Of a stretch of DNA of 64,000 nt, positions 19,011 through 41,403 are shown one piece after another. Under the pieces are notes generated by a model. The model saw only the letters and a program-made list of their open reading frames with translations. It ran no database searches and was not told where the DNA came from. Origin of the DNA: a virus; IMG/VR virus record IMGVR_UViG_3300045911_000143, positions 14,355 to 78,354 of that record; one strand, given 5' to 3'. Position 1 is the first letter of the stretch. Each line of letters starts with the position of its first letter. Both the position numbers and the translations under genes were made by a program.

Positions 19011-19188
19011 AAAAGGTTTTAACAAAATTTGTAATTTATATTGTTTTCGGTCGAGCAACCCCCATACCCTCTATTTTATCACGAAAAAAAAGTAAGTCAA
19101 TATTTTCCCAAACTTGTTTTTTGCTTTTACGATTGTACTACATAGTATCCCCTACAGTATAACATAGCGTTATACTGTAGATCAAGCC

Positions 19189-19852: not shown

Positions 19853-19857
19853 GGTTC

Positions 19858-20120: not shown

Positions 20121-20330
20121 TTAGTAAGTATCTCGGTTATATACCGCTTCGTCGAATCTCGCAGATTCAAAGAAACGCCATTCCTGTTCGGCCTTTTCTC
20201 CCGTGAAGATTTTCTTGGTGCGAGGATAGTAAAGGATCATGGTGCCAGCGTTGAAGGGGTTGCCGTAAAAGTCCCGACCAGCATACTTGGCCTTGATCCA
20301 GCGGGGGTCATCACGGTAGGAAGTCGCCAT
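20121..20330 (-). CDS. hypothetical protein
   Basis: GGAG RBS, own promoter. Confidence 0.6.
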   Translation of the reverse strand: MATSYRDDPRWIKAKYAGRDFYGNPFNAGTMILYYPRTKKIFTGEKAEQEWRFFESARFDEAVYNRDTY

Positions 20331-20398
20331 TGGTCATATCTCCACTTGGTGAAAGCATTATACTACAGCGGATGGTACGAGTCAAGAAAAATATTCTA

Positions 20399-20444
20399 TT
20401 GCATTGTATTCCATTCTATGATAAAATGGGATGGTAGGACGGGG
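20399..20444 (+). repeat. G-rich promoter repeat family (about 10 copies, both strands)
   Basis: Consensus TTGYAT..TG(A/C)TAAAAT-GGGATGGTNGGACGGGG at 20399+, 22049-, 24011+, 25357-, 26031+, 26423+, 27187-, 32726+ (diverged), 34226-, 41286-. Confidence 0.85.
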
Positions 20445-20596
20445 ATGGTGACAATATCCCCCTGTACCACACTTCCACTCCAATCTCCAAGATTGGAGAA
20501 TCGCAGTCTGCAACACTGGAGGACAATGTTGCAGACTGTAGATTCTGAATCAGGCACTCGGGGCTGTCAACCCCTGTTCCCTTTCCTTCATTTCGA

Positions 20597-20872
20597 TTAG
20601 ACAACGGTGGGGGAGAATCTAGTCTTGCGTCGGATGCTGGAATATCTGTTGCAGTTGCTTTCCTTGATATGGGGCCTTGCCTTTTCGTAGGTTCCCCATT
20701 TCGTTAAGATGAAAGTGTCGGCGTCCACATCCTCCTCCAGATAAGCATACTTCCCATCCTTTGACATATAGGAATAGAAAGTAATCTTATCCATGATGCC
20801 AAGGTCACGGAGTTCCTGCATCTTGACACGGAGCCAGCCATGACCGGGATCGCTGTAGAAAATGTATTGCAT
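20597..20872 (-). CDS. conserved hypothetical protein (DPGHGWL...YLEED family)
   Basis: AGGAGG RBS; motif seen in phage and plasmid proteins. Confidence 0.7.
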   Translation of the reverse strand: MQYIFYSDPGHGWLRVKMQELRDLGIMDKITFYSYMSKDGKYAYLEEDVDADTFILTKWGTYEKARPHIKESNCNRYSSIRRKTRFSPTVV

Positions 20873-20926
20873 GTGACTTCCTCCTAACGAGGATGTATTA
20901 TATCACGAATGTATTACAAGTCAAGC

Positions 20927-21127
20927 CTACCAGCGGCTTTGATTCCTAGGGATCAAGCCAAAGACAACAAGTAGGGTTACAAAGGCACCGATCAGGATGA
21001 TTAGGATTGTGCTTACAATCCACGGAAGCCAGAGCGGCGACAGAATCCAAACCCACGACCAAGTGACAACGCCGGCCAGTTTCAGGACGATGAAGATTGT
21101 GGTTAGTATGATGTAAAATCGTACCAT
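20927..21127 (-). CDS. small membrane protein
   Basis: VLKL.G...WSW.W.LSPLW family motif. Confidence 0.7.
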   Translation of the reverse strand: MVRFYIILTTIFIVLKLAGVVTWSWVWILSPLWLPWIVSTILIILIGAFVTLLVVFGLIPRNQSRW

Positions 21128-21128
21128 G

Positions 21129-21500
21129 CTACATTCCTAGTTGTCTTGACAGAATCGTCACGGCGTCATCAACATCCTGCTTTGTATAAGGCTTGAGTTC
21201 GCCTCGCATCACTTGCTCGTCAATCCATTCACCATCGACTTCCCAGACTTCACTATTGTCCAGACTGTCCCCGAAATGATCGAGATGACCAGTTGCATCA
21301 ATCCATTCGCCGCTAGGCTTACGGACAGCCAGATGATTCACGTGGAAGTCATCATCACTTTCTGCGTCATCATTGAAGAAAACGTCCGCCACGATGGTTC
21401 CGCCATAGAGTTTCTGGAGGGCAATTGAAGCAACATGGCACCAGCCATTGGTGTAGGCTTTGACGGCGAGACGATTCAGGGCTGCTTCGACATTGTTCAT
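21129..21500 (-). CDS. transglutaminase/papain-like Cys-His-Asp protein
   Basis: NGWC...NH...IDA.G; ATG 7 nt after TATAAT (leaderless). Confidence 0.5.
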   Translation of the reverse strand: MNNVEAALNRLAVKAYTNGWCHVASIALQKLYGGTIVADVFFNDDAESDDDFHVNHLAVRKPSGEWIDATGHLDHFGDSLDNSEVWEVDGEWIDEQVMRGELKPYTKQDVDDAVTILSRQLGM

Positions 21501-21549
21501 GAAATAGATTATACCACGGTTTTTAGAGTTTGTAAATGAGTGAGAGAGT

Positions 21550-21969
21550 TTAGGGTTGAACGCTTGGAGGACTGCCATAATTAGGGCAACCTCGTTCTGC
21601 ATCAACATCCGTGGCGTGGCAGGCGCAGGTTATGCTCTCGAAAGAATCACTGAGAAGATCAGTGTCGATGGTATAGATTACTGTCGTGCCGTTGACAGCA
21701 CCACGAGAATCAAACTTGAAAGAAAGTACCAGTTCCGCCTCCCTATCCTTGGTATGGACCCCATTCTGGCGGGACAGGAAATACACTACACCGGGTCCGG
21801 GGTTCTGGGTGCCTGTGTTGATATGCAGCGGCACCGTAGGATCGCCAGAATATGCACATTCATAAACAACATTTACGGGCATATTCGGGTTTTGCAGCAA
21901 GCAAAGTTGCTGTCCATCAGGATCAATGATGCAGAAGTTTGTCACGATCATCAAGATGGCGTAGAGCAT
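21550..21969 (-). CDS. exported Cys-containing protein
   Basis: GAGGA RBS, hydrophobic N-terminus, LLSDSFES motif. Confidence 0.55.
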   Translation of the reverse strand: MLYAILMIVTNFCIIDPDGQQLCLLQNPNMPVNVVYECAYSGDPTVPLHINTGTQNPGPGVVYFLSRQNGVHTKDREAELVLSFKFDSRGAVNGTTVIYTIDTDLLSDSFESITCACHATDVDAERGCPNYGSPPSVQP

Positions 21970-22133
21970 AATTTTTTCCTCTTGGACGAATATTATACCA
22001 CATGATATGGCAGTAGTAAAGTCAAATATTTTGTGCAGTGGAGTACCTCCGTCCGACCATCCCATTTTATCATATAATGGAATAGAATGCAAGAAAAAGG
22101 CGGTAGAAACCGCCCTTAAATGAATCCGCGATT

Positions 22134-22208
22134 TGGTGCCGCCTGAGCGACTTGCGCGCTCCTGATCTGCTTACAAGGCAGTTGCCTCGCTATCTAGGCT
22201 TAGGCGGC
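22134..22208 (-). tRNA. tRNA-Thr(UGU), non-canonical T and D loops
   Basis: GCCGCCT/AGGCGGC-ACCA acceptor, CTTGTAA loop, T-loop CGCAAGT. Confidence 0.65.
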
Positions 22209-22320
22209 TTTAATCGTAATGATCCAGCAAAATCCAGCATCCTGCAACGAGGATTGCTGCCACAGTGATCCAGAACATTCGGGAGATTCGATGCATTGGA
22301 TTCAATCTTGAGTTAAGGGA

Positions 22321-22454
22321 ATGGTGGCGGAAACGTATTAGCGCCTTATTGATTCTCTTAGCCGGTCATCGACCAAAGGTTTCCGGCGCTAATCGGAAAT
22401 CCTTTGCTGACCCATCCTAGCCATCCGCCTCAAGTGCGTTAGCAGGACCACCAT
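22321..22454 (-). ncRNA. unknown structured small RNA, copy 1
   Basis: Own TTGCAA/TATAAT promoter; 41-nt 5' block identical to 27002-27113; closing stem and pseudoknot. Confidence 0.65.
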
Positions 22455-22507
22455 ATGAAGCATTATACTACCATTGGATCAGGATTGCAAGGACTTTACT
22501 ATCTGGA

Positions 22508-22732
22508 TTAGTAATCGTCCCCGAAGTATCCATAATCTTCATCGGTTCCCATCCCAGCAGATGCCAGCGCCCAGCCGTCATCGGAATCATCGCAGTCGAT
22601 TTCAGGCTCCTCATCAGGGTCTTCATAGGCCAGCATGGGATCGAAAACTTCCCGGCAATCCATGCAAGTCCAATTGTCATCGTGCGTTTCCTGAGTGTTG
22701 AGGGAACCGCAGGCGGGGCAATGATAGTTCAT
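22508..22732 (-). CDS. zinc-ribbon protein with acidic tail
   Basis: CPAC...CMDC; GGAG RBS. Confidence 0.65.
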   Translation of the reverse strand: MNYHCPACGSLNTQETHDDNWTCMDCREVFDPMLAYEDPDEEPEIDCDDSDDGWALASAGMGTDEDYGYFGDDY

Positions 22733-22834
22733 TTGGGGTTCTCCGGTTGAGGAAAACATTATACTATGTTTGGTTGCAGGGTGCAAGCGATTACCTTGCT
22801 TTCCACCCTGCGCCTTCCACGAAAAGCGATTATC

Positions 22835-23038
22835 TTACTGATGCGAGATTTTTGCAATTCGCATCAAGTAGTTAGCCGCGTTGATGATGTATTCTTCATT
22901 CGTGATTGCGCGCTGCCAATACCATTGCTGGCGGGCCACGTATTCCCCCTTTCTTTCGTAAGGCATACGCTTTTCCCTTGCCTTCTCCCGATAGTGAAGA
23001 ATACGCTTGGCGAAAACTTCGAGGATTTCAGGATTCAT
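22835..23038 (-). CDS. hypothetical protein
   Basis: ORF; tiling. Confidence 0.45.
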   Translation of the reverse strand: MNPEILEVFAKRILHYREKAREKRMPYERKGEYVARQQWYWQRAITNEEYIINAANYLMRIAKISHQ

Positions 23039-23042
23039 AGTA

Positions 23043-23270
23043 TCATGCCTTATACTTTTTCACCAGTCCAGCCAAATTTTCTTCTGCCCCTTCAAGGCTT
23101 GTACGTTGCGAGCATGGCCGCCATTTGGTCTTAAAAGTGGGGCAAATGGCGGTATCAAAATTGTTGTAACAGAATGTTTCCAGCACAATATGCGAATCAT
23201 CCTCAAGCCGGACGATTGCATATTTCTTTTCTGCGCTGACCGTTACAACCCTGATCGCTTGCACTAACAT
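23043..23270 (-). CDS. hypothetical protein
   Basis: AGGAG RBS. Confidence 0.55.
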   Translation of the reverse strand: MLVQAIRVVTVSAEKKYAIVRLEDDSHIVLETFCYNNFDTAICPTFKTKWRPCSQRTSLEGAEENLAGLVKKYKA

Positions 23271-23298
23271 TCTCCTGATCGATTATGCTGCTATTGTA

Positions 23299-23511
23299 TC
23301 AGCCTTCCGCCCCAAGTTCAGCATAGGCAAGACTGATCGCAGCCGAATCTGATTCGGTGTAAAAAAGTTCCGGCCACGACTTGTCGGGGTTGCCGTGGCG
23401 GTTCCAAATGAATTGGCCCAACCGCAGATGGGTGCCCTTGCGCGCACCAACCTTGAAATACTCGTTAATCGTGGCGCTGAGGGTTTCGATGTTGCAGTTC
23501 AGGCGATCCAT
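23299..23511 (-). CDS. hypothetical protein (RLGQ...PELFY family)
   Basis: GGGAG RBS; common phage motif. Confidence 0.65.
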   Translation of the reverse strand: MDRLNCNIETLSATINEYFKVGARKGTHLRLGQFIWNRHGNPDKSWPELFYTESDSAAISLAYAELGAEG

Positions 23512-23577
23512 AGTGTTCTCCCTTGATATGGATTGTATTATATCACAAAATGGATACCAGTCAACCCCCTTGATAGA

Positions 23578-23611
23578 AAAAGGGCCGCCAGTTTTTTGGC
23601 GGCCCTTTTTT
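23578..23611. terminator. bidirectional intrinsic terminator
   Basis: aaaagggccgcca-loop-tggcggcccttttt. Confidence 0.75.
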
Positions 23612-23612
23612 G

Positions 23613-23852
23613 TCAGATCAGCCCTTCCCTTTTGGCCTTACTCACATATACCGCCGCGCTGGATTTCTTAATCCCAGACGCCACGACAGCATCCACGCGA
23701 GCCTTGTTCTCCGCATCGGCGGGGAGGGCCTTCAGAATCGCAACTGCGCGGTCATATGCGGTTTCGGCCAACTTGGGCCGTCCACGGCCACGCTTGGCTT
23801 GGATCACAGGGGCAGTGTTCTCGGGGTTTGTGACTTCGGTGTTATCATTCAT
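23613..23852 (-). CDS. AT-hook small DNA-binding protein
   Basis: KRGRGRPK plus helical domain; paralog of the 31979 C-terminus. Confidence 0.65.
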   Translation of the reverse strand: MNDNTEVTNPENTAPVIQAKRGRGRPKLAETAYDRAVAILKALPADAENKARVDAVVASGIKKSSAAVYVSKAKREGLI

Positions 23853-24181
23853 GTTTCAGTTCCTATTTTGGTGGTGGAGGCTGTATTATACAACGATTAG
23901 ATTAGACTTTCAAGCACCCCGTTGACGCATTCCAGTGACCGGGGTGGTGCAGGACCATTTGTTTTCAAGTGAGACTTACTATAGCACGCATCTTCTATCA
24001 AATACAAGTATTGTAATGTAAGATATTTCGTGCTAAAATGGGATGGTGGACGGGGATGGTATAAAAGAGAAAAAGGCGGGTGCCCTAGGACACCCGCCTT
24101 GTCTTGTCACCAGCCACCACGGCTGGTTTCTCGCTTCGCCCTCTCAAGGTGTAACTATTATCTCACAAATGGGGGAGGGTG

Positions 24182-25048
24182 TCAACCCTCCCCTTCCCCC
24201 GCGTCAGGCTTGCGGTTCAGGATGTAGTCTGCCGCCTTTTGCGCCCTTGCCGCTGCGGTGGCGAACAAATGCGGATCGCTTCGCAGCGCGCGGGACCATC
24301 CGTCAAGGTACGCCGCAGTATTCTCAATCACCTTGGGGGCAATCCCGGCTTCGGCACTCAGGAAACATGCTGCCAGTTCCGCCACAAGTTCCTCGCGGCT
24401 GTATTCGTGGGAACCGAAATAGGAAGGCTGATCGATTTCTTTTCGGTTCAAGCGAGACTTGTGGCCGGTGCTATGGGCAAGTTCATGGAACAGAGTAGCA
24501 TAGAAACTTTCCGCAGAATCGAAAGTCTCACGATGCGGTATATTGATTTTGTCAATCGTTGGGATGTAACATGCACGCTCCCCGCCGTAGCGGATTTCGG
24601 GGCGGTTCGGCATACCATTGACAATGGCCTCACATGCGTCCAGAACCGGGACAGCCTCGCGGGCCTCATGGGGCGGAAGTTCGATCCCGTCAACTTGCGC
24701 AATGTTGTAAACGAGGAAAAATCTGAAAATGGGGAAGGTTGATTCCTCGCCACTTTCATCGGTACGCTTCACCCAGTTCCAAAAATAGACCGGAGTATGC
24801 GCCTTTTCCTCGCCAGCCTTGATTGTTCCCCCGGCAGCCTTGATCTGATTGTAGGTCAGCCAGACCGATTCGGGATAACCCTTCATGACTTGTACCATGT
24901 TAAGCATGAAGGTGTTGATTCCCCGGTAGGTCCGTCCGCTGATGTTACGCGGGGGGTCCGATGCCTTCCACGGCTTCAACCACGGGGCCGTACCATTTTC
25001 GATCATCTTAAGAATCTGATCGGTCAGAATCTGATAGACTTTCGACAT
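24182..25048 (-). CDS. ardC: ArdC-family ssDNA-binding antirestriction protein
   Basis: APW.KPW, Y.GIN, W.TY.Q, FHELAHSTGH..RL.R, YS.EELVAE, AAY...W. Confidence 0.9.
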   Translation of the reverse strand: MSKVYQILTDQILKMIENGTAPWLKPWKASDPPRNISGRTYRGINTFMLNMVQVMKGYPESVWLTYNQIKAAGGTIKAGEEKAHTPVYFWNWVKRTDESGEESTFPIFRFFLVYNIAQVDGIELPPHEAREAVPVLDACEAIVNGMPNRPEIRYGGERACYIPTIDKINIPHRETFDSAESFYATLFHELAHSTGHKSRLNRKEIDQPSYFGSHEYSREELVAELAACFLSAEAGIAPKVIENTAAYLDGWSRALRSDPHLFATAAARAQKAADYILNRKPDAGEGEG

Positions 25049-25308
25049 AGCGTCGTCTCCGTTGATGGTGAAATCATTATCCGATATTAGCCTTTGGTTG
25101 TCAAGTGTCAATCGGCTATTTTTTGATCGTTTAAAGGCTTGACTATCAGATTGGATGATGTATAATGCTTTACATGGTTAGGGCGGTAACGACAGCCCCG
25201 ATCACAGCCCCGAAACGGGAACTTTGGCAACCTAGATTAATTGAGGGTAGGATGGTTTACCCCCGCGACGGCCCGTAAGAAAAATTGATGGTTGTAAACC
25301 AAACGAGC

Positions 25309-25344
25309 AAAAAATCCAGACCAAAGTTATGGTCTGGATTTTTT
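25309..25344. terminator. bidirectional terminator ending a + strand short transcript
   Basis: aaaaaatccagacca-aagtta-tggtctggatttttt. Confidence 0.75.
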
Positions 25345-25605
25345 AATTTACAGCATCCCGTCCGACCATCCCATTTTATCATATAATGGAATAGAATGCA
25401 ACAAAAAAGGGAGGCTTTTGCCTCCCTTTTGAGTTTGTTAGAATCCTTCCCCGTAAACGAACGCATCCTGATCCGCTGCACGCTCGGCGGCCAACCGATC
25501 CAGCCATTCGTGGTAGGCAATGTCGGATTCTAACATTTCAAGTTCTTCGTCGTTCATGGCTTCCTCCAGTTGGTGAAATCATTATATTACATCAACGCAG
25601 TTGAG

Positions 25606-25992
25606 TCAAGCGAAAACTTCGGAAATTTTCTGACGCCATTTTAGTTTTGCAGATTCTTTCACGAAAGCAATTTGCGTGCCGGACACCCCCATTTTCCAAC
25701 ACTCAACACCATCGTTATTTGCAGGGCCGAGATTGTAACAGGAAACCAAGAAACCGGCTTCATGAAGGTGAAGGTCTAAGTATAGGGGGAACCACTGGCG
25801 CAGTTTTCTGACTGAAGGTGCGCCATAATACACTGTTCCGGGGTGTTGTCCCTTTAGTTTGTGGATGCCATCATTATATGGTGATGGATAACTTTCCCCA
25901 ATGATTTCTCGGATAAGATCAGCCTGTCCGTCCCATTCATCGCAACGGAATGGTCCCAAACCTTTCTCGTTTTCAACTCTATAGGCCAGCAT
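25606..25992 (-). CDS. hypothetical protein (YRVE...G.GP family)
   Basis: ORF directly after promoter. Confidence 0.6.
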   Translation of the reverse strand: MLAYRVENEKGLGPFRCDEWDGQADLIREIIGESYPSPYNDGIHKLKGQHPGTVYYGAPSVRKLRQWFPLYLDLHLHEAGFLVSCYNLGPANNDGVECWKMGVSGTQIAFVKESAKLKWRQKISEVFA

Positions 25993-26111
25993 TGTAGTAT
26001 CATACCATATATTATTTTATTTCTCAAGTGTTGTATTCTATTCCATTCTATGATAAAATGGGATGGTCGGACGGGGTTGGTAATAAGTGATTAAAACCTC
26101 CCTATATCTTT

Positions 26112-26384
26112 TCACGTTGGGTATTCCAAACGATGCTTTTTCAGTGCATCGGCACGATCCCATGCACGATAATAACACTCGACCTCACCATCCGCATCAT
26201 AGACGCAATAGAGGGGGATATAAGAACCCCAATAGGTACCGCTCGGATCATATCCGCCACGATCCAATCGAACCTTGCGGCAGTAGAGTTTGGCCGAACG
26301 ATTGGCGTTGTAGTTGCGCCGACCCAAGGGAGCGCCACGAGAGCAGTTGACGGGGTTGGCTTTCAGACGTGCGTTAATGTCCAT
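26112..26384 (-). CDS. conserved hypothetical protein (GAP.GR...GYD..G.YWG)
   Basis: Motif; leaderless geometry. Confidence 0.6.
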   Translation of the reverse strand: MDINARLKANPVNCSRGAPLGRRNYNANRSAKLYCRKVRLDRGGYDPSGTYWGSYIPLYCVYDADGEVECYYRAWDRADALKKHRLEYPT

Positions 26385-26507
26385 GACCATCATTCTACAC
26401 TGATTGGAATAGAAATCAAGTCTTGTAATGTAATTGATTTCGTGCTAAAATGGGATGGTGGTCGGTGATAGTGGTGAAGAAGTGAGTTGCCTCACTTCGG
26501 TCATACT

Positions 26508-26891
26508 CTAGTCGAGGAAAGAATACAAGGCTTCAACATTCAGCGAGCGATCATTATAGGCTGCCTCCCTCATCGCATAGAATCGCTCGCTCAATTCTTC
26601 GGTACATTTCTCAACATACTTCCACAGGGAAACATTGTAAAGCAACAGGGTTAGGGCAACCCCGAAGGTGCGGTGATTCATCGTACCTTCATAGTAGTTG
26701 TTATCATTTACCACATTGTAAAGGCCCTCCGGGGCGATGACAAAATCAAAGCCGCCGATGTTCTCGACAGTCCATTGACCGCCAGTGTAATCCTCAGAAT
26801 GGTTCCGCGCAAGATTATACAGGCCATTCTCAGCCACGTGCGGGGGAAGTAGCGGAAAGATGCGAGCAAGATCATTCCAATTCATTGCCAT
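26508..26891 (-). CDS. ArdB/KlcA-family antirestriction protein
   Basis: Y.GG.W, N.YEG.M...FG...TL, C-terminal FLD. Confidence 0.75.
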   Translation of the reverse strand: MAMNWNDLARIFPLLPPHVAENGLYNLARNHSEDYTGGQWTVENIGGFDFVIAPEGLYNVVNDNNYYEGTMNHRTFGVALTLLLYNVSLWKYVEKCTEELSERFYAMREAAYNDRSLNVEALYSFLD

Positions 26892-27001
26892 CAGATTTCT
26901 TTCTTTCAGTGTTGGGGTATTATATTCCATTATAGGATGGTTGTCAAGCGTTTTGGTTAGTCAACCCGCAAACATCCCTTGTCCAGTTCACTTAGGTTGG
27001 T

Positions 27002-27113
27002 TGGTGGCGTGGTCTAATCGACATTAACCCTCTTGTTGACACTACGCAGTCGATATTCGCGTTATACGTCTTATCCTAGCCATCCGCCTCAAGTGCGTTA
27101 GCAGGACCACCAT
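27002..27113 (-). ncRNA. unknown structured small RNA, copy 2
   Basis: Own TTGACA/TATAAT promoter; same scaffold as 22321-22454. Confidence 0.65.
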
Positions 27114-27354
27114 GCAAAACATTATACAGTGTTTTCTTCCGTTGTCAATAGTGGAGTTATCAGATTGGTGACTTTAAAGATGCATTCCCCCCGTCCTCCT
27201 GTCACCATTTTAGCATGGAATGTAATACAATGCAAGTCTTGACAAACGATTTTTTTTATGGGAGACTAATCGCAAGGCATCCTCTTGTCACAAAAGATTC
27301 ATAAGATATTTTTCAAAAAACGCTTGACAGTAACATTTCATTATGTTACACTAA

Positions 27355-27780
27355 TCAGTTGGCCAGTTTCAGTGCCAGCACTTCAATATTACCAAACGAT
27401 TCAAAGTAATTGCTCCAAGGGTTATCCAATTTAACCTGTTTACCATCGGATGATGTGTATACAAGGTATTGATTTTTCTGACAATTATTCAATTCAGATT
27501 CAGCCCTTCTAGCATCACATTCTGTTTCATATACGTCAAAAAATTTTATATTTGCATCCATGTTCCATCCGAGTGAGTCGTCAGTATCATAGATTGCAAC
27601 AAGGGCGTAATAGAGTTGGCCCACCTTTGGTGTGAAGCCAACATCAACAAATTCGTTGCCGTATGTCAACGATAGTTGACCAAACTTCCATTCAGTAATG
27701 GTGTTGGGATGTGAATGATCTTGCGATCCAAAACCGTCTTCATAAGACAATTTTGAATATTGCAAATAGATTCTAGGCAT
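27355..27780 (-). CDS. hypothetical protein (cargo of module 1)
   Basis: 141 aa ORF. Confidence 0.65.
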   Translation of the reverse strand: MPRIYLQYSKLSYEDGFGSQDHSHPNTITEWKFGQLSLTYGNEFVDVGFTPKVGQLYYALVAIYDTDDSLGWNMDANIKFFDVYETECDARRAESELNNCQKNQYLVYTSSDGKQVKLDNPWSNYFESFGNIEVLALKLAN

Positions 27781-27793
27781 CTGGATGACCTAT

Positions 27794-27841
27794 TAAGTCC
27801 TAACGCATACGTTAGTAGGGTCCAGTATACACTAGTTGTGG
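27794..27841. repeat. 48-bp hairpin element (copies at 34803-34850 and 41856-41903)
   Basis: taagtcCTAACGcataCGTTAGtagggtccagtatacactagttgtgg conserved three times. Confidence 0.9.
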
Positions 27842-28120
27842 GAAAATTAAAAGCTTACAGTTTAACAAAGTGATAGTCAGTTTTTCGACCTTCTTTGTCC
27901 TGTTATTCTGAGACGTAGGAAACCTTGACTTCAACACCATTAATGGTGAAAACCTTGTCCTTCTTTTGGGGAAGGTCAGCAAAGAATAGATCAACGCTCT
28001 CTGTGGTGAATCGTCTGGAAAGTACCTCTGCCAATTCTTTGCTGGTCATGATAAGATCATTTTTTCCGATGGCGCTAACTTTGACAATCATGACTTTCTC
28101 CAACCTACGAGGATATCATA

Positions 28121-28363
28121 TCAGTCCTTTTTGTAGAATTCAAACTTTGCGCCATTTTTACAAGTGGCAATAATCAAACCTTTTCTATTGTAGGACAATT
28201 CCTTGAGTCCGCTATTATTATCACACTTTTTGGCAGCCAACTCGTAGGTTTCGGGAGCAAGGGGTGAGGACATAATCAAGGGATCGAAAACAAGTGCCTC
28301 CAGCATCAGAGTGATGGCCACGCCAAGAAGAGCAGAAATCAGATTCGTGAAAAAATCAGTCAT
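28121..28363 (-). CDS. small membrane protein
   Basis: N-terminal TM, Cys pair. Confidence 0.55.
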   Translation of the reverse strand: MTDFFTNLISALLGVAITLMLEALVFDPLIMSSPLAPETYELAAKKCDNNSGLKELSYNRKGLIIATCKNGAKFEFYKKD

Positions 28364-28364
28364 G

Positions 28365-28562
28365 TTACCCTTTCCTCTTGTGAATGTCTTTACAATACTT
28401 TACCACAATGTCGGGTGGGAGTCCATCATGGTTAATCAAAGAAAGGCGAACAGTTTCGGCGTCAGGTGCATCCATGTAAACAGTGTCATGGGGGATCAAG
28501 TCGCCATTCCGATTCTTACGATATACTGTCCATGCTCGCAGCGTCATTGGAATCTCCTTCAT
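28365..28562 (-). CDS. hypothetical protein (V..SL.NHDG family)
   Basis: ORF after promoter. Confidence 0.55.
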   Translation of the reverse strand: MKEIPMTLRAWTVYRKNRNGDLIPHDTVYMDAPDAETVRLSLINHDGLPPDIVVKYCKDIHKRKG

Positions 28563-28622
28563 TTGATGAAACCATTATACCGCAATGGAAAGGAAATTGC
28601 AAGAGTGGGGATTATCATCCAT

Positions 28623-29003
28623 TTAGGGGTTATACTGTTCTCCATTTACCCACCACTCTTGTGTTCCGTCAGAACGGATTACAGCGGGTTGGCCATTGTC
28701 GCGGTGACGTACTCCGTTAACCCACCACTCTTGTGTTCCGTCAGAACGGATTACAGCGGGTTGGCCATTGTCGCGGTGACGTTCTCCATTAACCCACCAC
28801 TCTTGTGACCCATCGGGGTGAATTACAGCAGGTTGGTCTCCAAGGCGGTGCTTTACTCCGTCCTTCCACCAGCCTTGATACCCATTAGTTAGAATTAAAG
28901 CCGGTAAATCATCTCCTCGATGCCGAACACCATACTGATTTTGGTACTCAGTCCGTATTAGCCTGCCGTCATCATCAAAAGTTTCTAGCCTATTGATCGT
29001 CAT
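28623..29003 (-). CDS. HRD..PA 24-aa repeat protein
   Basis: Four repeats, two near-identical 72-bp units. Confidence 0.8.
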   Translation of the reverse strand: MTINRLETFDDDGRLIRTEYQNQYGVRHRGDDLPALILTNGYQGWWKDGVKHRLGDQPAVIHPDGSQEWWVNGERHRDNGQPAVIRSDGTQEWWVNGVRHRDNGQPAVIRSDGTQEWWVNGEQYNP

Positions 29004-29416
29004 TATTATCTCCAATTTTTGGGATATTTATAATAGTATTTCATGATGGAAATCTAGGATTCCATCATCTCCCAAAAATGTTTTCACACTTTCAACGAGG
29101 ATTGAGGGTGTCAACAATCCTCGTTGAAAACTCACCGTCAAACTGGGTTTTCTGCAAAACCACAATTTTACGATTTTGTTCCTTTGCCAAAGCCTGTGCC
29201 AGTGCAATAGCAAACTTGTAATGCTTTTCAGGGAAAACCAAACCTTCAACCAGATATTCACCGACATTCGCACTCATTATTTTTTCCCTTATGTTTTGGG
29301 TTGCGTTGGTAGTCGTTCTTGCGGTCCTTATGCTTTGCCGCTTTGTTGAATTTTCGGAAATGTTTGGCAACAGGATTCTTCACGTCCCTATTCTCTAAAT
29401 TGATTGAAGCATTATA

Positions 29417-29896
29417 CTATGGATTGATTGTGCTGTCAATCATGATTTGTTCATTTGTCGTTTGGGGTGAGGCCGGAGTGAATGAAAAAATACATGATGA
29501 CTGACCGAATTGGTCAAGTTCCTCGAAACTATCAATCAATTCTGCACTTAATTTAATTAATCCAGTGACAACGGCTACACCGTTTTCATTACGTACCACT
29601 TCTTTACGGTGGGCGTAACCAGAAATCTCATATGGTGGCAGACACCATCCCAAAGGCCCTACGAATTCTTCTGGGCATTGATCCGTTAAAAGAACGTACC
29701 GGAAGGGATTTAAAAATTCTGTGAAGATTCCTCCGGGTGTTACCCCTTCTTTCTCTGAACAAAATCTTCTGCCTCTATAGACGTTTGTGTCATAGCACAC
29801 AATGTCTGTGAAAACTTGAGGTTCAGATTCAATTACTGTGCAGATCGGATAACCCGCTGAAATAATTGATGATATTAGTAGAACATTTGTCAACAT
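29417..29896 (-). CDS. exported Cys-containing protein
   Basis: Signal-like N-terminus, GYPICT, LIDSFE motif. Confidence 0.55.
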   Translation of the reverse strand: MLTNVLLISSIISAGYPICTVIESEPQVFTDIVCYDTNVYRGRRFCSEKEGVTPGGIFTEFLNPFRYVLLTDQCPEEFVGPLGWCLPPYEISGYAHRKEVVRNENGVAVVTGLIKLSAELIDSFEELDQFGQSSCIFSFTPASPQTTNEQIMIDSTINP

Positions 29897-29964
29897 TTTT
29901 CAATTCCAATAGGAAATCAATCCAAAAAGGATTGATTCCATGATACTATGGAATTTGTAAAATG

Positions 29965-30249
29965 TCAATCAAGATTTGCTTCTACAAGAATCGTAATCTG
30001 TGATTCATGACCTTCATGGTCGATCAAGAACATTGACGATCCAGACACTTCAATTTCTTGGTTTTCCCCTTCCATGAACTTGGTACTGTATTCACAACCA
30101 TCTGCACTATACCAAGTGACATACATGAATTCATTTTCATCCTTGCCGGTAAGAATGCCCAGCGATGGAAACGTCACTACACCATCCAAAACGATTCCGG
30201 CAGCGTTTTGGATAATCTTAAGAGCCTCGGGAAGTGTGATCTTTTTCAT
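29965..30249 (-). CDS. hypothetical protein
   Basis: ORF track. Confidence 0.55.
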   Translation of the reverse strand: MKKITLPEALKIIQNAAGIVLDGVVTFPSLGILTGKDENEFMYVTWYSADGCEYSTKFMEGENQEIEVSGSSMFLIDHEGHESQITILVEANLD

Positions 30250-30637
30250 AGTATGACTTACCTGCTGTATGACTTACGTGCTGGAAAACTTGCGGGTGAA
30301 CCACATCCCCGCTACCCGGTGGTATTGCCACAAATATTTCCTATCTACATCATCGGTGGGTTGTGGCACCCGGTTTGTTTAATGATTTTTGCTATGCTTC
30401 CATTATAGCATGTTTTTCAAGATTGTCAAACTGGCTCGCCTTCATCATCCACGGTCAGGCGTGTAATATGCCTCAAATCTTCCACACTTACATATTCATA
30501 TGTATTCATGTCGAGCAATGCTTGCCAATCCCATCGAGATGGATCGTCATTCTCAGATGAAGTCTGAATCTTAAGTGTGATTACATATTGATCTACACTA
30601 AACTGACGACTCATACTATTTTCTCAGTGAGGTTGGA

Positions 30638-30713
30638 TGGTGGAACCGGTGGGACTCGAACCCACAACCAATAGATTAAAAGTCTACTGCGCTACCAATT
30701 GCGCCACGGTTCC
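30638..30713 (-). tRNA. tRNA-Lys(UUU)
   Basis: Canonical cloverleaf, CTTTTAA loop, CCA. Confidence 0.95.
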
Positions 30714-30861
30714 AATATACTTACATTATACTTTGTTTTTCGACTTTGTCAACCCATCTTGCTTCAACAAACCCGAAAGGATAATTCTGGCTCGGATGAT
30801 AGCATTGAATTCAGCCGTTGACAACGGCTTTCCGCTACCTTTTACAATGATGCGAGAAAGA

Positions 30862-31086
30862 TCAGTGATTGCCTGCTGAACCTGTTCCTTGTTGATTACT
30901 TTCACGCAGATTCTCCAAGTAGGTTAGTCTTTCTCTCGCAGCATCAGCCAATCGTTGGACATGCTCAATTTGAGCCCTGAAATACTCTAGGCGGCTATTA
31001 TACCATCCCACCCCTTGTCGTGTCAAGGAAATTGCCCATTCGATTTCCTCATTGGTTTGAGGATTGTTGAGATTGAGCATGTTCAT
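30862..31086 (-). CDS. hypothetical coiled-coil protein
   Basis: ORF track. Confidence 0.5.
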   Translation of the reverse strand: MNMLNLNNPQTNEEIEWAISLTRQGVGWYNSRLEYFRAQIEHVQRLADAARERLTYLENLRESNQQGTGSAGNH

Positions 31087-31511
31087 GGCTTCACTTATTC
31101 TTGAGAAATTCCATTAATATCAGCGGCCAAAAAAGACCGACTACAATGTATTCAATTATACTCCATTCTTTGTGTTCGTCAACCAAGTTAGAATTCAGCA
31201 TCAGGGTTAAGGCCATAGCAACGGCAGCAGTCAGATAGAAGTCCCAGAAATTCATTCCGGCTCCACATCAATGACTACATCCTTCAACGATGCACCGGTG
31301 ATGTTGGCAAACGCTTGACGCAGTACCGCAATGGAATACTCACGGTGCTCGTCATCAATAAACTCAAGATGCTGAATTTCGTAGCGTTCATTTGGGAGAC
31401 CAACCGAAGGATCGTTACGGACCAGAATGTTAACGGTGTGCATGGTGTTCTCCAACCGATGAAATCATTATATTTCAACATGGGAGGCTTGTCAATAGCC
31501 TCCCATGTTTT

Positions 31512-31838
31512 TCAAGAACAAGACTTGATAACGTTGATAACATCCTGAACGCGGGTCGAAACTTTCGTCAAAATGTCACGCTCACGCTCACTACGCTGAA
31601 TCCCACATTCATCAAAAATCTTCCGAATGCTGCGAGCAGCGTTACGGGCAGCATCGCGGGTTTTCATCCCGCCGATTCGCTTTCCACTGTTAGGGTCGGT
31701 TACGGCCCAACCAGTGAGATTTTTCACCGCACCGGACGGTACTACTTGCACGTTACGATGGATATAAAAACCAGCAACAGTTTCACCGTTGACCGGCTTG
31801 AACCCGTAATCATTGAAGTAAACCTTAACATTACGCAT
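31512..31838 (-). CDS. hypothetical protein
   Basis: GGAG RBS, own promoter. Confidence 0.6.
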   Translation of the reverse strand: MRNVKVYFNDYGFKPVNGETVAGFYIHRNVQVVPSGAVKNLTGWAVTDPNSGKRIGGMKTRDAARNAARSIRKIFDECGIQRSERERDILTKVSTRVQDVINVIKSCS

Positions 31839-31978
31839 TTAATTTCTCCGGTGCGTTAGAATGGGAGCATTGTAATATGCTCCCATCCTTCAGTCAAGTG
31901 TTAGGTGGCTGTTAAACTTCCAGTATCGTAAGGACAGGGAAAATTATAAACCCTGAACTCAGGCAATACCGGAAACCG

Positions 31979-32596
31979 TCAAACTCGCGGAATCACGCCC
32001 GCCTGCCGTGCGTTGCACAGATAAACGTGGGCACTCGACTTCTTAATACCAGCGGCTTCCAGCGCAGAGATAACCGTCTTGGTATCATACTTGTCGAGGC
32101 TTCGCATGATCTTAACGGCGCGGTCATATGCGGTTTCGGCCAGTTTGGGACGACCACGGCCACGCTTGGCTTGGATCACTTCGGGGACGGCCACGATAGG
32201 TGCAGCATCTACAGCGGGCGTTGGGGCCTCCACCGTGGTTTCCGGGGCATCATCGACCGTCACCGTCACTTCCGGCTCAGGCGCGACTTCCACGACCACA
32301 GGGGCGGAATAGACAACCGGCACGAGGTCAGCCGGGACTTCCTTCACGACGGCGGCAGAAAGAGCCTTAACCCGGCTCGAAACATATGCCTTAACCCTGT
32401 TTAGGTCATTCTCACCCTTGAGGACGGCATTGCAGATATACTTGGCGATCAGATTTGGGTTGTCGCCACCATGAATGTCAAACAGGGACGTAAACAGGGA
32501 CGCATCTTCACTCGGCATGGCATCCACGAAAGCCGTGGCATCCACGACCGAGGTCAGGGGGATATCAAACTTTTCCAGATACGATGTCAGGTTCAT
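31979..32596 (-). CDS. AT-hook DNA-binding protein with Pro/Ala/Val linker
   Basis: VIQAKRGRGRPKLAETAYDRAV identical to the 23613 gene; AAGGA RBS. Confidence 0.7.
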   Translation of the reverse strand: MNLTSYLEKFDIPLTSVVDATAFVDAMPSEDASLFTSLFDIHGGDNPNLIAKYICNAVLKGENDLNRVKAYVSSRVKALSAAVVKEVPADLVPVVYSAPVVVEVAPEPEVTVTVDDAPETTVEAPTPAVDAAPIVAVPEVIQAKRGRGRPKLAETAYDRAVKIMRSLDKYDTKTVISALEAAGIKKSSAHVYLCNARQAGVIPRV

Positions 32597-32820
32597 TTGC
32601 TTTCCTTTGTTAGTGCCGGGACCATCCCCGACCATGTGAAGCATTATACACCGTTTCAGTTGAATTGCAATATCCCGATGTGTTGTATTTTTACCACAAC
32701 TCTTGTTGTATTTTTACCACATCGCTTGACAATCTTTACATTACATGTTAAAATAGGTTGGTGGTTGAGATGATAACAAATAACCCCAAGCCCATTGTGG
32801 CGGGCTTGGGGCGGAAGCCC

Positions 32821-33585
32821 TTAGAAATCAAGGGCTTCGAGCAGCAACGTGGCTTGAGGAGAGGCAGCAATATCATCCGGGGTGATATTCTCCCGATTGA
32901 TTGTAATACTTTCAAAGTTATCAGCCTTGAGGCTGAAAGTCTTGATCCCCACACTACGCTTGTTTAAGCAGCGTTCAATACAATTCTTCATGCGGACACT
33001 CGCACCAGAATTGACCACCTTCCGCTCACCCTCTACAACTGTCGTCGATGAAAGTTCCAGATAAAAGAGCATGATGGTTTCCGCTACCGGCAAACCATTG
33101 AATAGAACAGGCTCCATGATGCCATTTTCCTTTCGGCAGTCAAGGTTGACCTTAACACCATCAGCCACCGTGACATAACAACGATCATGCCCTTTCCGGT
33201 ATCCATCGCTACGGTCGCCGTCATTGGTCTTAATCAGGGACTCCAATTCCTGAGCCTTACGACCAGCGAACAGGGTCTTGAGAGTAGTATGGTCCATCAC
33301 GGACAAAACCGGATCATTCTTGACGTACTCTGCCACATCGTCGAACGCGATGGCTTCCAGTGCCTTGATCTTGCGATCATACAAATTCCGAATGGAAAAC
33401 CGGGTGATGAAATTGATATTCTTGGACGGGGGCTTAGTGTATCCAGTGGAAGGCTTGTAACCGTGAATGGTTCCAATGCCGCCCTTCTGAATGGTAATGA
33501 GACGATCCAGCGTTTCGGCCTGAGCCGGGGTGCAAAGGAAAGGGCGGCTACCCTTGGTATATGTGACCAGCGATTCAGTATTCAT
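32821..33585 (-). CDS. hypothetical protein
   Basis: GAGGA RBS, 254 aa. Confidence 0.7.
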   Translation of the reverse strand: MNTESLVTYTKGSRPFLCTPAQAETLDRLITIQKGGIGTIHGYKPSTGYTKPPSKNINFITRFSIRNLYDRKIKALEAIAFDDVAEYVKNDPVLSVMDHTTLKTLFAGRKAQELESLIKTNDGDRSDGYRKGHDRCYVTVADGVKVNLDCRKENGIMEPVLFNGLPVAETIMLFYLELSSTTVVEGERKVVNSGASVRMKNCIERCLNKRSVGIKTFSLKADNFESITINRENITPDDIAASPQATLLLEALDF

Positions 33586-33633
33586 AGCAGTGTTATCCTC
33601 TCTGCGAGCGTGAGAACAGTATAGCAGGATTTT

Positions 33634-34143
33634 TCAATCTGTCAATGTACGACGAAAAACATCTTCAATATATGCTCGCATAGTGGGGATTTGTGCTCGG
33701 TTGAATTCAGAATTCCAATTATCTTCTGTTTCCACAATAGCCTCAAGCGCCTCTAGCGAAAGTTCACCGTCAAGCAGATAGTAGGCATATTCATAATTAT
33801 ACCCATCTACACGATCAACGGGACCATCAACGGCGTCCCAAAAGAATCCGTCAAACTCCAATCGAATATGATTGAAGTAAACATTATTAGCGTTCCATAG
33901 GTCAGCGTCATTTGGGACGCAACCCTCTTGTGCAATCAAGGTTTTTTCTACTTCTGAAACATCAACAGGGTCATCGTGGGACCACACACGAATTTTATAA
34001 TTAAACACCCCATATCGTTCCAGAATCTTTGCTAATTCAAGAGCAAAGATGCCGCAACCACCTCGATTAATACGGTGAACGCAGTCGCAGATATGACCAC
34101 AAATCTTATCCAAAGCGTTGCAGATGGATTCGTTAGTGTGCAT
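33634..34143 (-). CDS. transglutaminase/papain-like Cys-His-Asp protein
   Basis: INRGGCGIFA...NH...WDA; ATG 7 nt after TATACT. Confidence 0.5.
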   Translation of the reverse strand: MHTNESICNALDKICGHICDCVHRINRGGCGIFALELAKILERYGVFNYKIRVWSHDDPVDVSEVEKTLIAQEGCVPNDADLWNANNVYFNHIRLEFDGFFWDAVDGPVDRVDGYNYEYAYYLLDGELSLEALEAIVETEDNWNSEFNRAQIPTMRAYIEDVFRRTLTD

Positions 34144-34225
34144 GACAAGTAGTATAACACAATTAAATAACTTGTCAATCATTTCAAGTGTTGTATTTTT
34201 ACCACAACAAATCTATGTATTACTA

Positions 34226-34350
34226 TCCTCCCTCCACCATCCTATTTTAGCACAAGCATCCTGAACAGAAGCTGAATATTCAGGAAATTATTTGCTTGAC
34301 ACATACAAATTATTATTGTATACTAATCCTGCCGGGGCGTTCATGTTTGT
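34226..34350. repeat. ~120-bp repeat with divergent promoters (second copy 41283-41405)
   Basis: ccctccaccatcctattttagcacaagca...gctgaatattcaggaaattatttgcttgacac...tatact. Confidence 0.9.
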
Positions 34351-41127: not shown

Positions 41128-41403
41128 GGGATTCTCTATGATGTTGGAACATCATAACAGTAGTTTCAGGAAGATGCAAGGCAATCCACATTTATACCCT
41201 CGGGGGGGGGCGTTTTAATCGCGTCTTTATAGTACTAAAGATGGTTTTCCTTGTAAAGCCCCCTCAAAAATGAAAGATGCCGTTCTCCCTCCACCATCCT
41301 ATTTTAGCACAAGCAACCTGAATGGAAGCTGAATATTCAGGAAATTATTTGCTTGACACGGGCTAATTATTAATGTATACTATTCCTGCGGGGTTATGTT
41401 TTG

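Follow-up and report, generated by a model that had tools for sequence, protein, structure and literature searches.

A repeated early-region promoter module that may mark gene-cassette borders in a T4-like jumbo phage and three relatives

Background

In an uncultured T4-like jumbo phage from hot-spring mats, a promoter sequence recurs in both orientations within the early-gene region, which raises the question of what the copies pointing against the genes could be for. The source was a 78-kb fragment, of which a 64,000-nt stretch, the window, was analysed. An earlier note on this DNA had described about ten such promoters, nine of them with positions, as convergent pairs, many driving no gene, and had suggested R-loop priming of replication, polymerase trapping, genome entry or operator function.

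Anatomy and distribution of the promoter copies

The cassette consisted of TTGYAW, a 17-bp spacer and TGnTAAAAT followed by GGGATGGTnGGACGGGG, and was present in 10-11 copies, all within 19-41 kb, the early-gene region, with five on the + strand. The strict 17-mer, searched with up to three mismatches, occurred four times against 0.11 expected, and none of 100 shuffles reached four. All nine sites were found at the positions and on the strands claimed. A scan of the 78-kb record using the looser pattern TGnTAAAAT[AG]G revealed 11 sites, spanning 19081-41309, and no match in the rest of the record. Every credible gene of 19-42 kb was placed on the - strand by a codon-usage gene call; thus the five + copies are antisense to the local genes, as had been stated, and are termed backward here. 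The identities proposed for ardC and klcA (a KlcA/Antirestrict protein) were confirmed. The region is patchy in composition (39-54% GC) and rich in orphan genes.

Judged by sequence, each copy joins a near-complete promoter of the host sigma-70 type (-35, 17-bp spacer, TG extension, TAAAAT, GGG(A) discriminator) to a constant G-rich sequence that would be transcribed first, an anatomy that supports strong promoters. Type A copies (20399+, 22049-, 25357- and 26031+) share 89-98% identity over ~50 nt between unrelated flanks, and Type B comprises 24011+, 26423+ and 27187-. Type C (34226- and 41285-) is devoid of a -35 hexamer and has two TTCAG boxes in its place, while 32726+ and 19056-19101(-) are diverged members. 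Conservation does extend through the discriminator and initial transcript. The accompanying claim that ordinary promoters need no such conservation was right in part; it fails for GGGA after the -10, a described basal element (PMC3526302), and further promoter families in the same early region likewise have conserved leaders.

Placement relative to gene cassettes

Forward copies lie directly after a terminator hairpin, where they would open a gene cassette, an arrangement known from the promoter-early stem-loop (PeSL) cassettes of T4-type phages. The - strand copies and their terminators were as follows.

19056..19101, - strand: weak member, TTGACT-16-TGATAAAAT-AGAGGGTATGGGGG, predicted to fire into a 12-bp tandem repeat array
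22047..22092, - strand: Type A copy, followed by a second promoter (21992-22020) and then ORF 21550-21969
22094..22115, - strand: terminator hairpin with T-run adjoining the -35 of the 22047..22092 copy, a PeSL-like layout
25356..25401, - strand: Type A copy, forward by strand but gene-less, with a perfect intrinsic terminator ~20 nt past its predicted start
25309..25344, no strand assigned: bidirectional terminator (A6, 10-11 bp stem, T6) ending a predicted ~58-nt RNA from the 25356..25401 copy; a + strand promoter at 25139-25166 likewise faces it
25403..25426, no strand assigned: terminator hairpin with T6 adjoining the -35 of the 25356..25401 copy, again PeSL-like
27190..27235, - strand: Type B copy, followed by a small-RNA-paralogue promoter (27121-27148) and then klcA
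34227..34272, - strand: Type C copy, two TTCAG boxes and no -35 hexamer, with the layout of module U1 of the relatives
41284..41329, - strand: Type C copy within a 109-nt repeat, 91% identical to 34228-34336

Backward copies adjoin, back-to-back, the promoter that opens the next cassette, the -35 hexamers being 3-13 bp apart, and would fire into the hairpin at which the preceding cassette terminates.

20399..20444, + strand: Type A copy, TTGCAT-17-TGATAAAAT and then a G-rich start, facing the 3' end of a four-gene block, 20597-21969(-)
20357..20385, - strand: partner promoter, TTGACT-17-TATAAT, driving ORF 20121-20330(-); -35s 13 bp apart
24011..24056, + strand: Type B copy, predicted to fire into the ardC terminator
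23978..24007, - strand: partner promoter, TTGTAT-18-TGcTATAGT; -35s 3 bp apart
24073..24100, no strand assigned: ardC terminator, a GC hairpin terminating on the - strand (T-run 24063-24072) and met ~27 nt past the predicted + start of the 24011..24056 copy; a second hairpin lies nearby at 24110-24126
24182..25048, - strand: ardC, with ArdcN and zincin peptidase domains and its own promoter (25076-25104)
26031..26076, + strand: Type A copy facing the stop codon of ORF 26112-26393(-)
25999..26027, - strand: partner promoter, TTGAGA-17-TGgTATGAT, serving ORF 25606-25992; -35s 3 bp apart
26423..26468, + strand: Type B copy facing hairpin 26479-26498 and the stop codon of klcA; the start of this copy, GGGATGGTGGTCGG, shares its register with the core of the relatives
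26392..26419, - strand: partner promoter, TTGATT-16-TAGAAT, serving ORF 26112-26393; -35s 3 bp apart
26508..26930, - strand: KlcA-like antirestriction gene (PF03230)
32726..32771, + strand: diverged copy, TTGACA-17-TGTTAAAAT-AGGTTGGTGG, predicted to fire into terminator hairpin 32784-32811 of gene 32821-33585(-)

A divergent - promoter was present behind four of the five + copies (-35 distances of 3, 3, 3 and 13 bp), and GC hairpins occurred 20-30 nt past the predicted start of + copies. The facing pairs described earlier are a by-product of the actual rule, forward at cassette starts and backward at cassette ends, while the existence of many gene-less copies was borne out.

Conservation in related phages

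The comparison set consisted of three related uncultured phages, G001, G002 and G003, two of which are complete (307 and 315 kb). G001 has ArdC, rIIA/B, Rnl1 and structural genes in common with the window phage, at 31-72% amino-acid identity. A homologous core, TAAAAT-GGGTGCGTGGTCGG, was confined to the early region of the relatives, where it occurred on either strand, with 17 matches in G001 (7+/10-), 13 in G002 (6+/7-) and 16 in G003 (9+/7-), all within ~50-65 kb; a reversed control pattern gave 0-1. Approximately 40-50% of copies were backward in all four phages. Neighbouring copies swapped orientation in 8 of 10 steps in the window phage (P ~0.05, a binomial estimate) and in just 7 of 16 in G001.

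The core of the relatives was invariant from the -10 to about +8; among 47 copies, positions 7-14 after the -10 were the same in 42-47, except position 8, which was T in 34. Between G002 and G003, identity by sub-window was 42-100% across the cassette (-60 to +20) and 90-100% in the core, and mostly 22-64% in the flanks, some flanking windows reaching 79-93%. One backward copy conserved in position (G002 88573+/G003 103063-) was 67-90% identical over the cassette, with most sub-windows at 79-90%, compared to 44-64% in its flanks.

In G002 and G003 together, 12 of 18 TTCAG-box modules were backward compared to none of nine -35-type modules (P = 0.001), and a strong hairpin followed 11 of 18 backward compared to 4 of 21 forward copies (P = 0.01). 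The upstream half of backward copies is of the -35 type in the window phage and of the TTCAG-box type in the relatives. Empty tight convergent pairs could be seen in G001 (44849+/44941- and 50870+/50970-) and G003 (129619+/129708-). No inversion or deletion joints were found at the repeats in the source-sample contigs. Compared with random positions, G002/G003 synteny breakpoints showed no significant tendency to fall near cassettes (P = 0.15 and 0.8), so a recombination role of the cassettes is only putative.

Interpretation

We tentatively favour a lineage-specific, portable promoter/boundary module as a quite possible explanation, in which backward copies would insulate the cassettes of a variable early region. 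Because they are predicted to fire into the preceding hairpin terminator, only short dead-end RNAs, roughly 50-100 nt, would be expected. Read-through polymerases may be stopped by head-on firing and/or by short antisense RNA over the terminator, and would thus be blocked before reaching and occluding the next promoter; every small cassette would thereby remain an autonomous, movable unit. The invariant -10-to-+8 core may let one polymerase form, possibly with one phage factor, serve all copies jointly, and the shared core would be homology available for recombination. Since an insulator requires no invariant initial transcribed sequence, the core must have a further use. The U-tracts of hairpins in the backward direction are only partial; therefore, some backward RNAs may extend antisense into ardC and other genes. 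The design looks like a real, undescribed way to mark gene-cassette borders, as three related giant phages share it.

It is conceivable, if unlikely, that the copies represent a common operator or factor-loading site, with a phage protein binding the invariant -6 to about +8 plus the purine run. The protein could be a repressor silencing the promoters jointly, or an antiterminator or activator that joins polymerase where transcription starts; this would unite ~15 promoters in a single timed regulon, and backward copies could silence immediate-early cassettes, ardC and klcA among them, by timed antisense transcription. The core stands at a fixed register from the -10 in all 47 copies from the relatives, regardless of upstream module, orientation and downstream context. 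The core is also uniform inside each genome and different between the window phage and its relatives, a pattern that co-evolution with a factor would produce; however, gene conversion could also yield within-genome uniformity. The distinct upstream half of the relatives' backward copies, in which a pair of TTCAG boxes 11 bp apart stands in place of a -35 hexamer, suggests an activator, and the promoter-proximal terminators that follow many copies fit the operator or factor-loading reading. On the other hand, the core has no dyad symmetry, and a search for a candidate DNA-binding protein common to the four phages found none, the most conserved small early protein among them being an HNH endonuclease.

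Multi-copy short RNAs acting in trans appear quite unlikely. Here, backward and gene-less copies would each make a ~50-100 nt RNA that carries a terminator hairpin and a conserved unstructured G-rich 5' end (GGUCGGACGGGG in the window phage; GUGGUCGG plus purines in the relatives) and that pairs with or sponges a host RNA or RNA-binding protein. The expected order, in which a conserved 5' segment is followed by an A/U-rich linker and then by a U-tailed GC hairpin, can best be seen at 25309-25401, with a like layout at G001 46648+ and 48305+ and G002 72105+, 79658+ and 82858+, and conservation falls on the extreme 5' end, a trait of many seed-bearing small RNAs. However, just ~8 transcribed nt are invariant, ordinary mRNAs begin with the same start, and the A-rich linker is merely the complement of the facing terminator's T-run. 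The seed and its complement occurred at or below chance outside cassettes in G000-G002, with two extra 10-mers in G003; leaders matched the anti-Shine-Dalgarno tail no better than shuffled sequences (-9.47 vs -9.19 kcal/mol), and no Rfam family matched.

Backward copies could also be functionless by-products of cassette shuffling, landed or flipped inverted through recombination, which we consider very unlikely. The high identity between Type A copies with unrelated flanks, the patchy, orphan-rich region and the PeSL recombination documented in T4-type phages would fit. Set against this are the steady backward share in all four phages, the relatives' own upstream module and hairpin association of backward copies, the fixed back-to-back spacing in the window phage, and the G002/G003 backward copy conserved above its flanks; a functionless strong antisense promoter should moreover be selected against.

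The physical models of the earlier note, in which persistent G-rich R-loops prime replication or amplification, or the sites trap polymerase or pull the genome in, are highly improbable: a G-rich non-template strand just past a strong promoter does favour a stable RNA-DNA hybrid, a GGG discriminator long-lived open complexes, and the array that the weak member 19056-19101 would fire into resembles an iteron-type origin, but G-richness ends after ~25 nt (the next 100 nt equal the genome background), the usual R-loop initiation pattern occurred in 3 of 55 copies, a hairpin terminator lies within 20-35 nt in many copies, 11-17 sites per genome occur in both orientations, half of the copies are plain mRNA promoters, and transcription-driven entry would need a single orientation. 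No three-tetrad G4 was found at the 55 copies. These results lend no support to R-loop origins or transcription-driven entry; a role in holding RNA polymerase is still conceivable.

Comparison with known systems

In T5 early promoters (N25, P25, P26) and similar very strong phage promoters, homology reaches past the hexamers and takes in the initial transcribed region, which affects promoter escape. These promoters are not known to have an invariant G-rich start, and backward gene-less copies have not been reported for them.

Bacillus 5' polypurine/STAB-SD mRNA stabilisers (Hue et al. 1995; Agaisse and Lereclus 1996; cited in PMC3997798) likewise place purine-rich sequence near the 5' end of phage or bacterial transcripts; unlike them, the leaders here pair with the anti-Shine-Dalgarno tail no better than shuffled sequence, and such a model would leave gene-less copies unexplained.

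The GGGA downstream basal element of extended -10 promoters (Feklistov et al. 2006; Barinova et al. 2008; PMC3526302) binds sigma region 1.2 and increases affinity ~100-150-fold for Thermus aquaticus polymerase. Such promoters similarly have TGnTAnAAT directly followed by GGGA. The element accounts for positions -6 to -3 only; no contact has been described for the invariant GGTCGG (about +3 to +8) or for the purine run that follows it.

In phiKMV-like phages, LUZ19 P001 (PMC10914365) is a conserved antisense early-region promoter with a proposed elongation block, and PAK_P3 antisense RNAs are also known. As here, P001 is conserved across relatives, opposes the coding strand and is proposed to stop elongation into early genes. 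However, it is a single promoter of the phage's own single-subunit polymerase with long antisense transcripts, whereas the window phage has many host-type promoters, each paired with a cassette-border hairpin.

PeSL cassettes of T4-type phages (Arbiol et al. 2010, PMC2839356; Comeau et al. 2014, PMC4122927) are likewise small and repeated, place a strong sigma-70-like early promoter immediately after a terminator stem-loop, are clustered amid small non-essential genes of the hyperplastic early region, and are near-identical inside one genome. The nt-1/KVP40 PeSL consensus, TTGYVH-N17-TAWWAT, resembles the TTGYAW-N17-TAAAAT of the window phage. In contrast to the present cassettes, PeSLs include, at their 3' end, a Shine-Dalgarno sequence together with the start codon of the gene that follows, and PMC2839356 and PMC4122927 mention no backward or antisense copies. 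The cassettes of the window phage and its relatives differ from PeSLs in having no demonstrated recombination, judged by contig joints and synteny breakpoints. Approximately half of the window phage copies oppose the genes without driving any of them, conservation lies in the -10 to +8 core and not in the hairpin, and one core is joined to three different upstream halves.

Genomic region carrying the promoter copies

The virus is represented by a single record of 78,354 bp without terminal repeats, of which the window covers bases 14355–78354. The DNA runs containing window DNA were labelled as hot-spring or microbial-mat metagenomes. The GC content was zoned, with approximately 29% at 1–19 kb, a patchy 47% (39–54%) at 19–34 kb, and approximately 40% beyond. 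The ArdC and KlcA-like proteins could be confirmed, and a SAM-lyase-like protein is encoded; the 17–18 tRNAs and a GOLLD RNA are all on the − strand. The diagnostic phage genes are as follows.

55298–57421: rIIA
54218–55219: rIIB
40000–41127, 36742–37737, and 59881–60519: T4-type RNA ligases

Based on rIIA, rIIB, the RNA ligases, and the tRNA cluster, the window could be assigned to the early/accessory region of a large T4-like phage; orphan and anti-restriction genes accompany them in DNA of patchy GC. Like the promoter-early stem-loop (PeSL) cassettes, the promoter cassettes thus lie among small accessory genes in the hyperplastic part of a T4-type phage genome. Megablast of 20–35 kb of the window against phages and plasmids gave no match, protein-based locus searches using a 254-aa protein and rIIA retrieved no loci, and the Rfam scan returned only the tRNAs and GOLLD above threshold, with no match at the cassette sites.

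Several further features of the region were recorded. The rIIB homologue (54218–55219) has an extra C-terminal helix-turn-helix segment (residues ~287–327) with weak matches to HTH_23 and sigma-70 region 4. A 72-nt tandem repeat (28637–28852; 2.4 copies, 94% identical) lies within the ORF 28623–29003. The proteins encoded at 23613–23852 (79 aa) and 31979–32635 (~218 aa) have in common a 24-residue block, VIQAKRGRGRPKLAETAYDRAV (71 nt, 90% identity), which is AT-hook-like, so that both may bind DNA; the start of the latter gene is probably an internal ATG downstream of a G-rich leader.

Promoter copies in the window

The existence of the G-rich promoters reported in the earlier note was confirmed. 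A strict 17-mer occurred four times in the window against 0.11 expected, and the looser pattern TGnTAAAAT[AG]G revealed 11 sites, all within 19081–41309; no G-rich copies were found elsewhere in the 78,354-bp record. The copies, named by position and strand, could be classified as follows.

20399+, 22049−, 25357−, 26031+: type A, approximately 50 nt, 89–98% identical
24011+, 26423+, 27187−: type B
34226−, 41285−: type C, two TTCAG boxes in place of the −35 hexamer
32726+ and 19056–19101(−): diverged members

The shared plan consisted of TTGYAW, 17 bp, TGnTAAAAT, and then a start of approximately 17–25 nt that is G/T-rich and C-poor. The promoter part of this plan, which is of the strong sigma-70-like early kind seen in PeSL, was present in 9 of the 11 copies, while the type C copies had TG and TAAAAT and no −35 hexamer. 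The −10 is of the GGGA-type extended form, with a TG extension and with TGnTAAAATGGGA after the −10 in six copies and AGGA or AGGT in three; in related phages, GGG precedes T, C, or A. GGGA placed 3′ of the −10 raises polymerase affinity approximately 100–150-fold in Thermus and 7–10-fold in E. coli (PMC3526302), and TG, TAAAAT, and GGG(A) are all promoter elements already known. The likely transcription start is the G located 6–7 nt downstream of the −10, and the predicted transcripts would begin with GGUCGGACGGGG in the window and with GUGGUCGG plus purines in the relatives.

The conservation downstream of the −10, which the earlier note had taken as special, is real, but conserved leaders were also present in other promoter families of the region (e.g., TATAAT-GNTTTCACCA...GGAG). 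It is thus a habit of the genome and not peculiar to the G-rich class.

Orientation, terminators, and boundary layout

All credible genes at 19–42 kb were placed on the − strand by the codon-usage gene call; therefore, the five + copies are antisense, and 5 of the 11 copies point against the genes (backward copies). The forward copies 22047–22092 and 25356–25401 have a hairpin and T-run immediately upstream (22094–22115 and 25403–25426, respectively), touching the −35, an arrangement known from PeSL. For the five + copies, the hairpin is downstream, and none is immediately upstream as PeSL would have. All of them aim at the 3′ terminus of the − strand unit before them, and its GC hairpin is reached within approximately 20–30 nt at 24073–24100, 26479–26498, and 32784–32811. 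At four of the five, a divergent − strand promoter lies 3, 3, 3, or 13 bp away (−35 to −35) and is predicted to drive the next − strand gene. This anatomy gives a unit order of forward promoter, genes, terminator, backward promoter, and next forward promoter. A perfect terminator (25309–25344) lies approximately 20 nt past the predicted start of the 25356–25401 copy, which should therefore yield only an RNA of approximately 58 nt.

The same terminator is bidirectional and is faced by a + promoter (TTGACT-16-TATAAT) in the 25139–25344 stretch, with a predicted + RNA of approximately 170 nt. The start of this promoter, TATAATGCTTTACATGGT, resembles the starts of two small-RNA paralogues (promoters 22462–22490 and 27121–27148) and that of the promoter at 32643–32670. 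A 55-nt repeat (93% identical) at 22414–22468 and 27073–27127, just 3′ of two − strand promoters, marks these paralogous small-RNA candidates.

Conservation of the core in related phages

A similar motif was detected at an ArdC-retrieved locus of an uncultured phage (G001; IMG/VR 3300005683_000019, 129.6 kb), which has ArdC, rIIA/B, Rnl1, and structural genes in common with the window phage at 31–72% amino-acid identity. Its version reads TAAAAT-GGGTGCGTGGTCGG, or GGG-N-TGGAGGTCGG. A small HNH endonuclease of the window (35840–36169) is 61% identical to its G001 counterpart, far above most early proteins, as expected for a mobile gene. The pattern scan further revealed two relatives, G002 (306,759 bp) and G003 (314,956 bp), both complete and carrying direct terminal repeats.

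The core, from the −10 to approximately +8, matched 17, 13, and 16 times in G001, G002, and G003, respectively, against 0–1 for the reversed control pattern. The copies were all confined to approximately 50–65 kb of each genome and occurred on both strands (7+/10−, 6+/7−, and 9+/7−), with approximately 40–50% pointing against the genes. Positions 7–14 after the −10 were the same in 42–47 of the 47 copies, except position 8 (T in 34); a purine run follows, after which conservation fades. The window copy 26423+ (GGGATGGTGGTCGG) has the identical register. Exact type A searches found nothing in viral contigs and two matches in metagenome contigs, both within coding sequence and taken as chance, as were 11 single matches of the type B/C pattern in viral contigs; the relatives' cassette had no match in cultured phages.

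One core is combined with three upstream halves in the relatives.

U1: GTTCAG-N5-GTTCAG, 11 bp apart, without a −35 hexamer; the layout of window type C
U2: hairpin, then TTTACW-17; PeSL-like, with the terminator immediately upstream
U3: TTGACN-17; like window types A and B

When backward and forward were scored relative to the dominant gene strand in G002 and G003, 12 of 18 U1 copies were backward compared to none of nine U2/U3 copies (Fisher P = 0.001), and a strong hairpin followed 11 of 18 backward copies compared to 4 of 21 forward copies (P = 0.01). Between these two genomes, the cassette (−60 to +20) was 42–100% identical by sub-window and the core 90–100%, compared with mostly 22–64% in the flanks, where some windows reached 79–93%. 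One backward copy whose position is conserved (G002 88573+ / G003 103063−) was more conserved than its flanks. Tight convergent core-promoter pairs, approximately 90–100 bp apart with no gene between, were present in G001 (44849–44941 and 50870–50970) and G003 (129619–129708), and each facing transcript would fold onto the complement of its partner's start.

Three copies of the element GTGTTGTATTTTTACCACAAC lie in the window, at 32680–32723 and 34188–34208, and it is present again downstream of −35-type copies in G002 and G003; this recurrence points to a second regulatory site that the phage family has conserved.

Interpretation of the promoter copies and the invariant core

The favoured reading is a portable promoter/boundary module whose nearest published kind is PeSL. 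Backward copies of such a module would stop read-through polymerases and thereby shield the next promoter.

The invariant core, together with the separate U1 half of the backward copies, suggests an added layer, namely an operator common to the copies or a switch that depends on a factor. Likenesses of the core to Chi-type sequences and to the complement of a tRNA 3′ end were also considered; its fixed register relative to the −10 argues for a place in transcription initiation. The same sequence in fixed register across many promoters is as expected of an operator. No dyad symmetry was found in the core, and a search for a cognate DNA-binding regulator common to the phages identified none. No contact has been described for the invariant GGTCGG at approximately +3 to +8, which may point to a new polymerase or phage-factor contact with the initial transcribed region. 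Three other candidates for the core found no support. The match to the anti-Shine-Dalgarno was no better than that of shuffled leaders, leaving a Shine-Dalgarno mimic or ribosome-bound 5′ stabiliser unsupported; a leaderless mini-ORF from the ATG of GGGATGG (MVGRGW and similar) has an unconserved frame and an ATG upstream of the likely start site; and for a G-quadruplex, the three-tetrad pattern was absent and the two-tetrad pattern trivial given the composition.

Cassette copies may alternatively produce a short RNA acting in trans. Seed-bearing small RNAs have their own promoter and an intrinsic terminator, which yield a short stable RNA; such an architecture is predicted at 25309–25401 and at several backward copies. 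Seed/complement sites outside the cassettes were at or below chance in G000–G002, with two extra 10-mers in G003. The distribution of GGATGG as a general phage RNA motif was not decisive, with one third of its 69 sites being intergenic.

The same cassette adjoins unrelated cargo in G002 and G003. A recombination hot spot is nevertheless unsupported, as the association of G002/G003 synteny breakpoints with cassettes was not significant, and no inversion or deletion joints at repeats were seen in contigs from four runs of one sample, only contig breaks. Repeats at approximately 7.0-kb spacing (27791–27841, 34800–34850, and 41853–41903; also 34228–34336 and 41285–41393) frame three modules with unrelated cargo, of which the type C copies are part.

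The earlier interpretation stands in part: the promoters and their gene-less or antisense copies hold, while the R-loop/origin and genome-entry readings are not supported. Origins of the T4 oriF/oriG type are few per genome and have a promoter transcript that remains hybridised over an unwinding or G-rich zone downstream. In a comparison with such origins, whose sequence criteria are heuristic only, the R-loop initiation pattern was found in 3 of 55 copies; the G fraction was 0.51–0.53 over 25 nt and 0.19–0.23 over the next 100 nt. Origins are also hard to reconcile with the 11–17 sites in each genome, given that half of these serve as ordinary mRNA promoters and many point at terminators. Genome entry driven by transcription would need one orientation, and the copies occur in both.

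Two other repeat structures were recorded. At the 29%-to-47% GC boundary (region 18891–19101), the 12-bp unit TTGTAAGGAATA is repeated in tandem (7.5 perfect copies, 18922–19011). Two ACAAATTTTGTTAAA copies frame this array, as do two convergent promoters, 18891+, which has a TTCAG box, and 19081−, whose start is G-rich; the array could serve as an iteron-type origin or bind a protein. A palindrome of approximately 35–47 bp (TGACAACAGTATCGCAT...GATACTGTTGTCA) is present in three copies (19533–19587, 19810–19864, and 20073–20127) spaced approximately 270 bp apart, each overlapping the TTGACA −35 hexamer that precedes a small ORF; these look like operators.

In large phages, most anti-defence and host-takeover genes lie in the early region, and how the small cassettes there stay independent and exchangeable is poorly understood. 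Here, a promoter module with an invariant start-site core is conserved across a family of ~300-kb phages and used in both orientations. Should early expression be insulated or timed by the backward copies, the PeSL idea would widen from a 'recombination linker' to a 'boundary element', and compact insulator parts could be offered to synthetic biology. A bolder proposal, which we consider rather unlikely, is that backward gene-less promoters, each paired with a terminator, form a deliberate, separately regulated control layer of phage early regions. In the relatives, these promoters would depend on a factor that recognises the tandem TTCAG boxes; by way of the invariant core, they would either insulate the early cassettes or, following a timed switch, shut them down, anti-restriction genes included. 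This would be an undescribed principle recurring in unrelated phage families.

Comparison with known systems

The nearest published kind, PeSL, has the same strong sigma-70-like promoter and upstream terminator layout as two forward copies here. PeSL cassettes are gene-oriented and are followed by a Shine-Dalgarno and start codon, whereas 5 of the 11 copies here run against the genes; likewise, PeSL leads into genes, whereas the 25356–25401 copy runs directly into a terminator. The PeSL papers describe co-oriented, gene-leading copies only (PMC2839356, PMC4122927). PeSL copies also recombine with one another, which shows as indels at cassettes and as mini-circles. In phiKMV-like phages, a conserved antisense early promoter has a proposed role similar to that of the backward copies (PMC10914365). 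Two features go beyond PeSL and were found in no paper: gene-less copies that systematically point backward and are paired with terminators, and an invariant start-site core common to a jumbo phage family.
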